A stretch of DNA of 38,221 nt, from the IMG/VR virus record IMGVR_UViG_2585427971_000006; one strand, given 5' to 3'. The notes under the pieces were generated by a model. That model ran no database searches and was not told where the DNA came from. It worked only from the letters and a program-made list of their open reading frames with translations. This document shows, piece by piece, positions 36,488 to 37,450 of the stretch. The number at the start of each line of letters is the position of its first letter. Within the stretch, counting starts at the first letter, position 1. Both the position numbers and the translations under genes were made by a program. Source of the DNA: a virus. Its lineage: Duplodnaviria; Heunggongvirae; Uroviricota; Caudoviricetes.

Positions 36488-36840
36488 ATATAAAAGCCGC
36501 AGTAACTTGCCATGATAGGATACTGCGGCTGGCTGGTTAACTTTCGATAGTGCGAGTATTGAATGATTTCCAGCCGTTACTGATTTTATATAACGGCAGT
36601 GGAATTATTCAACACACAGGCAAAACACAGGCAAAACGGAATAAGCTGAGAAAAAAAGCGTGCTTTCCCAATCTGGGGCAAATCACGTCTGAATGACACC
36701 TGAAAACAGGTGGTGGACTCAAGAAGGCTTGGAATATTCTTCTTTAATGTTATGTAATTCATTGATTTTTCGTGTACGATTTTAAGACATTTATTCCAAG
36801 AAGAATTTTTAACTCTTTGATTTTTCTACTCTGTATCATC

Positions 36841-36901
36841 GGTCTCGAAAACCGGAGTAGGGGCAACTCTACCGGGGGTTCAAATCCCCCTCTCTCCGCC
36901 A
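36841..36901 (+). other. 3' fragment of a tRNA-Ser (CGA, serU-like) gene: probable prophage att core / attR
   Basis: GGTCTCGAAAACCGGAGTAGGGGCAACTCTACCGGGGGTTCAAATCCCCCTCTCTCCGCCA has anticodon loop, long variable arm, TPsiC arm and CCA but no 5' acceptor or D arm; phage genes on one side, host zinT on the other. Confidence 0.6.
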
Positions 36902-37450
36902 CTTTATCAATGACTTATCTCCCGACTTCCCGCCTTGCTTTTCCTAAACAGAACAATCGTAGGATATTCTTGAAGGGTTAGATCGTCACTGTTTTCTGTT
37001 CGATACTGTGACATTCAGCACTTGATTCGCTATGGGTCTGACAGGAAGGTTTCGAGCGAAAATCTACAGTTATTCAGTCGTTTTCTTATCGGTCACCATT
37101 ATTCTTTTAGACATTGATCCTATGAAACTGCCGCAAAGTTGCTGGCGGGAACTGAAGTTGCGTAGAGAAGGGGTCAATAATTGAGCCAAAAAAGGAACGC
37201 GGCCGTCAGATTAAAGCCGCGGGACAAAGTCCATAATTTCCAAGAGTTGTTGAATTTCCCAGCTTTTTTGAAAGCCTTTGTATCATACTAACAAGTAAAA
37301 AAGGTTTAAACACCAAAATTAACCTATATTTCTGGTTAGCTTTACCATGACAGATGACTTGCTCCTGGAGACATTTGCGCTGCCAGTCTGTATGGCTGAG
37401 TTGTGTATTTATTGTTCGCCTTTTTCTCAGTTTTTTTCTACAGACATAAT

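Follow-up and report, generated by a model that had tools for sequence, protein, structure and literature searches.

Positions 36721–36901 of the window (the whole 38,221-nt stretch of DNA analysed here, IMG/VR virus record IMGVR_UViG_2585427971_000006) almost certainly represent the attR of a lambdoid prophage that is inserted in the serU tRNA-Ser(CGA) gene of Escherichia coli ST131 and employs an integrase of the CP-933U/ST64B subfamily. As a prophage boundary, the site is ordinary and belongs to a type that is known and very common; it involves no new mechanism: integration into a tRNA gene that leaves behind a displaced 3' fragment is textbook. The right end of the window contains the following features:

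36200–36487, plus strand: the final phage ORF ahead of the att region, coding for a predicted membrane protein of 95 aa without an assigned function (PHROG 1443, E = 9.5e-57)
36721–36839, plus strand: the conserved minimal P arm of attP, on the phage side of attR, common to all 12 distinct serU-phage sequences
36840–36901, plus strand: the 62 nt from the 3' end of the host serU (tRNA positions 29–90), displaced and forming the non-functional half of the duplication
36902–37348, plus strand: host DNA native to the region downstream of serU (96.3% identity to K-12), including an IHF-consensus match at 36905–36917
37571–38221, minus strand: the host gene zinT (97.8% identity to K-12 zinT)

In a BLAST comparison with the uninterrupted zinT–serU locus of E. 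coli K-12, homology covers 36840–37348 (96.3%) and zinT at 37571–38221 (97.8%) and stops exactly at the junction, at position 36840; the sequence to the left of this position is foreign to the K-12 locus. The fragment at 36840–36901, CGGTCTCGAAAACCGGAGTAGGGGCAACTCTACCGGGGGTTCAAATCCCCCTCTCTCCGCCA, is identical, at 62 of 62 positions, to positions 29–90 of the 90-nt K-12 serU tRNA-Ser(CGA), and carries the host-type variable-arm pair A36859/T36870. An earlier note on this DNA had described a prophage boundary formed by integration into serU, with host DNA including zinT beyond it. Both the partner end in strain EC958 and the empty-site junction in K-12 bear out this description, and zinT does lie in the host DNA beyond the fragment, on the minus strand; the tRNA fragment itself, given as 36841–36901, stands as well, with the start shifted to 36840 on the strength of the K-12 identity. 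Complete tRNA genes were sought at 36840–36901 with ARAGORN and with Rfam at gathering and permissive thresholds, and none was detected, in agreement with the truncated state claimed for this copy. Only sub-threshold matches to tRNA-like pieces are obtained at the fragment, and the only ARAGORN calls in the window are the two phage-borne tRNAs at 8804–9054. The ORF at 36200–36487, on the phage side, is common to lambda, phage 21 and mEp460-like phages.

Two further observations concern the host flank. Between the serU-downstream DNA and zinT, the window contains an unrelated 222-bp segment (37349–37570) in the place of ~1 kb of K-12 sequence that includes yodB; because of this replacement, the lineage represented in the window is taken to lack yodB. 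In addition, the flank contains GGATATTCTTGAAGG at 36958–36975 (AGAATATTCTTGAAGG in K-12), which resembles the P-arm sequence GGAATATTCTTCTT around the candidate arm site P1 (see below); this likeness is probably a coincidence.

The integrase end of the prophage lies outside the window and was taken from genomes that are identical to it. Many ST131 chromosomes, EC958 and JJ1886 among them, match the region at 100% identity, and the whole window is collinear with EC958, the differences being limited to two indels. The EC958 element is a lambdoid prophage of ~41 kb in which the genes for tail fibres, tail, head, terminase, lysis, Q, replication, immunity, dicB, exonuclease, a DUF4224 protein and a tyrosine integrase follow one another in this order; it is located elsewhere than Phi4 of the same strain, which sits at 1.48 Mb. 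At its far end, an intact tRNA-Ser(CGA) gene, its 3' end 27 bp away from the int stop codon, is followed by mtfA and asnT as in K-12. The intact serU and the integrase gene that had been predicted for the other prophage end are, accordingly, both present in EC958, ~41 kb away. The DUF4224 protein, encoded upstream of int, matches excisionase PHROGs. Among 5426 complete E. coli genomes, the P arm is found in 1080 and the int–serU junction in 1162. The serU gene is a published integration site of prophages and Stx phages (PMC7067040, PMC8065619, PMC13188871), hosts genomic islands as well (PMC7545054), and is the site where the Salmonella phage ST64B inserts (PMC10100743).

The two serU copies that flank the prophage can be told apart. 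The window fragment and the intact EC958 serU match at 60 of 62 positions, and the two differing positions (GGAGTGGGGGCAACTCCACC in the intact copy vs GGAGTAGGGGCAACTCTACC in the window fragment) pair with each other in the variable arm of the cloverleaf, the difference amounting to a compensatory change from A-U to G-C. The G..C version is present in all four int-proximal (attL) copies and all eight contiguous attP contigs examined, and the A..T version in all six displaced serU-site fragments (those of the window and of five other genomes) as well as in the empty serU of K-12; therefore, the G..C pair is phage-borne and the A..T pair is host-borne. This distinction delimits the place of recombination:

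36840–36858, plus strand: 19-bp block to which strand exchange is confined, CGGTCTCGAAAACCGGAGT, spanning the serU anticodon stem-loop

Because the identity between phage and host starts at 36840 and the first difference is encountered at 36859 (A in the host, G in the phage), the exchange must be confined to 36840–36858. Judged from this comparison, the 62-nt homology overstates the ‘att core', and the exchange falls within its first 19 bp. The 7-nt anticodon loop CTCGAAA (36844–36850), which is flanked by the inverted arms of the stem, is the probable overlap region, by analogy with how integrases of the lambda family use the anticodon loops of tRNA genes.

The form of attP was examined by querying IMG/VR with a sequence specific to attP, in which the end of the P arm is joined to the core with the phage-type G. 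Ten contigs were returned, and in eight of these, the P arm, the 62-bp core, the P' arm and int are contiguous, exactly as reconstructed from the two prophage ends, an order that could also come from a tandem lysogen. The predicted junctions are:

attP: ...TCTGTATCAT-CGGTCTCGAAAACCGGAGTG...
restored attB: intact serU followed by CTTTATCAATGAC

In the other two contigs, the P arm and the phage-type core are followed by an A+T-rich element that encodes an AlpA-like regulator, without int, which suggests that a phage and an island occupy serU in tandem. Two other potential sources of information on the recombination site were considered and discarded. The records ON470583 and ON470580, which encode an identical integrase, were evaluated as virion-derived sources of attP, and ON470583 proved to be a predicted prophage, partial in extent, in which host genes (mtfA and asnT) are included. 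The copy in E. coli O26:H11 11368, near uspF, where homology ends after CGGTCTCGAAA, was evaluated as a case of integration at a secondary site that could narrow down the crossover; this prophage occupies the Rac/ttcA site and has IntR/XisR. At its right end, there is a 92%-identical serU-type P arm with the first 11 nt of the core. This P-arm piece, which ends in the anticodon-loop region, is a mosaic relic fused to another element with a terminator hairpin of the hairpin-1 type described below.

To the left of the junction, ~36721–36839 is the only sequence common to all copies, as seen in the alignment of six other E. coli copies and confirmed with the 12 distinct sequences. This minimal P arm contains four candidate protein-binding sites:

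36728–36738, plus strand: candidate arm-type site P1, CTTGGAATATT, 112 to 102 bp before the junction, invariant in relatives
36755–36767, minus strand: IHF-consensus site, H1-like, AATCAATGAATTA, with the core TTGAT invariant in relatives
36790–36800, minus strand: candidate arm-type site P2, CTTGGAATAAA, inverted, 50 to 40 bp before the junction, invariant in relatives
36810–36822, minus strand: IHF-consensus site, H2-like, AATCAAAGAGTTA, next to the core, identified by consensus match and conservation

The arm motif, CTTGGAATW, occurs five times in the 49.9-kb EC958 locus, compared with 1.0 expected, a count that none of 100 shuffled sequences reached. The P arm has two of these occurrences and the P' arm three, arranged in tandem, so that all five fall at the ends of the prophage, with none elsewhere in the 49.9 kb; the P2 motif, at 2429–2437 of that locus, corresponds to 36792–36800 of the window. 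Of the four matches to the IHF consensus, WATCAANNNNTTR, in the 38-kb window, three lie within 36755–36917 (36755–36767, 36810–36822 and 36905–36917). The two P-arm matches are parts of a 17-nt direct repeat, in which 36810–36826 pairs with a copy that includes the 36755–36767 site. The third match, in the host flank, lies at the position that H' holds in attP, where the P' arm of the phage has ATTCAATCACTTA and ST64B has ATTCAAGCACTTA. As candidate IHF sites, the arms of attP contain two exact consensus matches in P and a one-mismatch match in P'. Across the 12 distinct relatives, the candidate motifs are invariant and the positions between them vary. The CTTGGAATW motifs at 36728–36738 and 36790–36800 are likely to be integrase arm sites, and binding of IHF to the adjacent consensus matches is predicted; these assignments draw on motif statistics, conservation among fairly close relatives (at least 85% identity) and analogy.

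The integrase, encoded at 42565–43615 of the EC958 locus, aligns with lambda Int from residue 1 (residues 1–313, E = 1e-12) and matches the Pfam families Phage_int_M and Phage_integrase; a Pfam match for the integrase N-terminal domain itself was not obtained. The catalytic residues R, K, H, H and Y align with those of lambda Int, and the second arginine is replaced by lysine (FHDLK vs FHELR in lambda). The same lysine is present in the ST64B integrase Sb28 (701–1690 of the ST64B sequence), so that FHDLK, retained in two phages with 59%-identical integrases, is probably a trait of the subfamily. The P' arm repeats (43560–43615 of the EC958 locus) lie inside the last int codons, with a 13-bp unit, CTTGGAATATTTT, and the number of sites varies between genomes, being 2, 3 or 4 in all. 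In RefSeq, the integrase is labelled ‘frameshifted' in EC958, in an O157:H7 strain and in 13E0780, and is not so labelled in OkiPb01699. These alleles differ, in any relevant respect, only by a single additional 13-bp CTTGGAATATTTT unit. In EC958, the ORF stays open over 341 codons and differs only after ...VPLPENIP, past the catalytic tyrosine, so that the C-terminal tails of the two alleles read ENIPRKYSK vs ENIPSNSKCDFCH, each followed by a stop codon. The three-site allele is present, at 99% identity or higher, in 719 of the 1151 genomes with this int end and, hence, is the majority form; only the three-site count is used here because split alignments were joined in the megablast search, which makes the count of the two-site allele ambiguous. 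Given that the ‘frameshift' changes only the last residues and that the three-site allele is the majority form, the EC958-type integrase is probably functional.

The comparison with lambda places these elements in a familiar framework. Shared with lambda are the heterobivalent tyrosine integrase (MGRRR...LPPN.Y, alignable from residue 1), the arrangement of two arm-type and two IHF-like candidate sites in the P arm with tandem arm-type sites and an H'-like site in P', and the excisionase gene upstream of int. Unlike lambda, in which the core lies between gal and bio, the core here is inside a tRNA gene, the arm motif is CTTGGAATW, the P' sites overlap the coding end of int and number 2 to 4, and Arg311 of lambda Int is a lysine (HDLK).

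ST64B offers independent support; its record is a circular phage genome in which attP can be read directly. Its integrase Sb28, for which the record itself notes similarity to the CP-933U integrase, is 58.7% identical to the one described here and targets the same gene, serU, and the same CGGTCTCGAAAACCG opens the tRNA-like core in both phages. The arm motifs differ (TGAGAAAA in ST64B vs CTTGGAATW), whereas the layout is nearly the same. There are three tandem P' copies in ST64B and three in EC958, with spacings of 10 and 13 bp in both, the first copy being located 47 bp after CCA in ST64B and 46 bp after it in this prophage. The direct P-arm copy is at -110 to -103 in ST64B and at -112 to -102 here, and the inverted copy (CGAGAAAA in ST64B, with one mismatch) is at -49 to -40 and at -50 to -40, respectively; an H'-like site right after CCA is likewise shared. 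The two systems differ in the N-terminal sequence of Int and in that the P' repeats of ST64B lie just past the int stop codon rather than inside int. The same geometry combined with a different motif and a different Int N-terminus is what would be expected of co-evolving arm sites and arm-binding domains. For the CP-933U/EHEC serU prophages, the same integrase–serU junction is present in O157:H7 genomes at 99.7% identity. The EHEC/Stx serU prophages differ in cargo and late regions, in keeping with the mosaic nature of lambdoid phages; present in the ST131 copy are iss, lom, IraM, hokD/sok, DicF, IS200 and a lineage-specific 11-bp duplication.

This duplication and two hairpins are found on the phage side, no more than 350 bp away from the core:

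36495–36504/36521–36530, no strand assigned: hairpin 1, a 10-bp G+C-rich stem (-20.1 kcal/mol; z = -3.7 on the plus strand and -2.7 on the minus strand)
36574–36598, no strand assigned: hairpin 2, CCGTTA...TAACGG (-12.7 kcal/mol, z = -3.8, folded in a slightly wider stretch)
36615–36636, plus strand: a perfect 11-bp tandem repeat, CACAGGCAAAA x2

The earlier note had listed all three, and they do exist in the sequence, with small corrections of the coordinates (the repeat, placed at about 36615–36637, ends at 36636). The further proposal, that the repeat and the hairpins are arm-type or IHF sites of the integrase, is not upheld by the comparative data and is highly improbable. The association of the segment 36589–36720 with the P arm in a subset of the relatives, along with the proximity of all three features to the core, is compatible with such a role. 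However, the 11-bp unit is single-copy in AR_0077 and O26 11368, and the segment containing it is missing from 13P477T, A31, O103 12009 and CFIAFB20190157, four prophages that share the same serU junction; because it is single-copy or absent in these related serU prophages, the duplication is, on the evidence of the alignments, a lineage-specific slippage product. Hairpin 2 is broken in relatives, its right arm being TAACTT or TAACTG in O26 11368 and AR_0077, and the segment is absent from the four other serU prophages. The P' arm contains no further copy of the repeat or of either hairpin sequence, and none of the three features matches the IHF consensus. As for hairpin 1, it directly follows the stop codon of the last ORF and, on the minus strand, is followed by UUUUAUAUUU; homology to mEp460-type phages with other integration modules runs through it to ~36588, and the relatives retain a hairpin at this position with a different inner stem. 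Hairpin 1 belongs with the tail-fibre module and looks like a terminator, at the end of that module, for leftward transcripts that run from int to att, in a position resembling that of lambda tI. A consensus scan of 36100–36905 listed no terminator; the loop of hairpin 1 is above the size limit of the scan, so that folding was used instead.

Two other readings concern the origin and the present state of the boundary. That the fragment is unrelated to the prophage and is a leftover of an older event at serU, for instance, an island of the PAI-serU type or a tRNA duplicate that has decayed, might be considered given that serU also hosts genomic islands (PMC7545054) and that the two AlpA-encoding viral contigs join the same P arm and core to an island-type element rather than to int. 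This explanation is barely credible in view of the structure of the junction: the P arm meets the fragment at the same nucleotide in five other serU genomes besides the window, attP joins the P arm, a tRNA-like core and the P' arm with int without interruption, and the DNA to the right of the fragment is native serU-downstream sequence, without an extra element. The reading as a prophage attR, which accounts for these observations, has a different kind of competitor, namely, that the attR is a fossil that no longer works in a grounded prophage incapable of excision and propagation. We regard this as unlikely, albeit with a substantial residual chance. It draws on the RefSeq label of a frameshifted integrase and on lesions in the window copy of the prophage. 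At 18530/18531, the window lacks 133 bp of the EC958 major capsid gene, so that two ORFs, 18253–18546 and 18543–19337, result from this out-of-frame deletion; the missing 133 bp are present in all eight best-matching complete genomes among the matches listed. The 792-aa tail-fibre gene is split into the overlapping ORFs 32787–33944 and 33911–35194 by the loss of one base at 33452–33456, where the window has five A's compared with six in EC958; the missing base may reflect a genuine frameshift or an error in sequencing the homopolymer. Finally, IS200C is inserted between lom and the tail-fibre gene (32105–32228, an Rfam STnc490 match, and ~32237–32695, tnpA). Unless the 133-bp deletion is an assembly artefact, the window copy of the prophage is probably unable to build capsids; the prophage may no longer make particles. 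Yet, defects in capsid and tail genes stop the formation of particles, not excision; the integrase ‘frameshift' is one extra 13-bp arm-site repeat that alters only residues after the catalytic tyrosine, in an allele that is the majority form; xis and both arms are intact; and contiguous attP forms with this very int allele exist. We infer that the prophage may still be competent for excision.

Apart from these lesions, the prophage carries several recognizable accessory elements in the window, and the EC958 prophage also carries iss and iraM:

175–226, minus strand: DicF sRNA
5637–5808, plus strand: sok/hokD toxin–antitoxin locus
8804–9054, plus strand: two tRNA genes, with the anticodons CAT (tRNA-Ile in RefSeq) and TCT
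9753–9942, plus strand: STnc100 sRNA

The integration event that would account for the attR can be outlined as follows. In the attP of the infecting phage, a 62-bp copy of the 3' part of serU would have lain between two arms: the P arm, with two candidate arm-type and two IHF-like sites, and the P' arm, whose two to four tandem arm-type sites overlap the 3' end of int. The lambda-type heterobivalent tyrosine integrase would have exchanged strands with the host gene inside the anticodon stem-loop, the 7-nt loop being the most likely place. At the far end, the host 5' part of serU would thereby have been joined to the phage-supplied 3' part, yielding an intact, functional tRNA gene beside int and xis. 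At the end captured in the window, the host's own 3' 62 nt remain cut off beyond the P arm, ahead of the native downstream DNA and zinT.

The variation of the P' arm raises the speculative possibility that slippage of the 13-bp unit, which simultaneously shifts the reading frame of the Int tail and changes the number of P' sites, functions as a heritable tuner of the efficiency of integration and excision. This is improbable but, if true, would explain why hundreds of RefSeq genomes label the integrase a pseudogene, and the 11-bp duplication in the flank of the P arm would then be a neutral by-product of the same repeat-prone region. For this ST131 prophage, the analysis separates the nearby features that belong to the recombination site from those that do not, and fixes the right boundary of the prophage to the nucleotide, at 36839/36840. 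The resulting junction map is useful for delimiting prophages, for designing excision PCR and for correcting the ‘frameshifted integrase' annotation.
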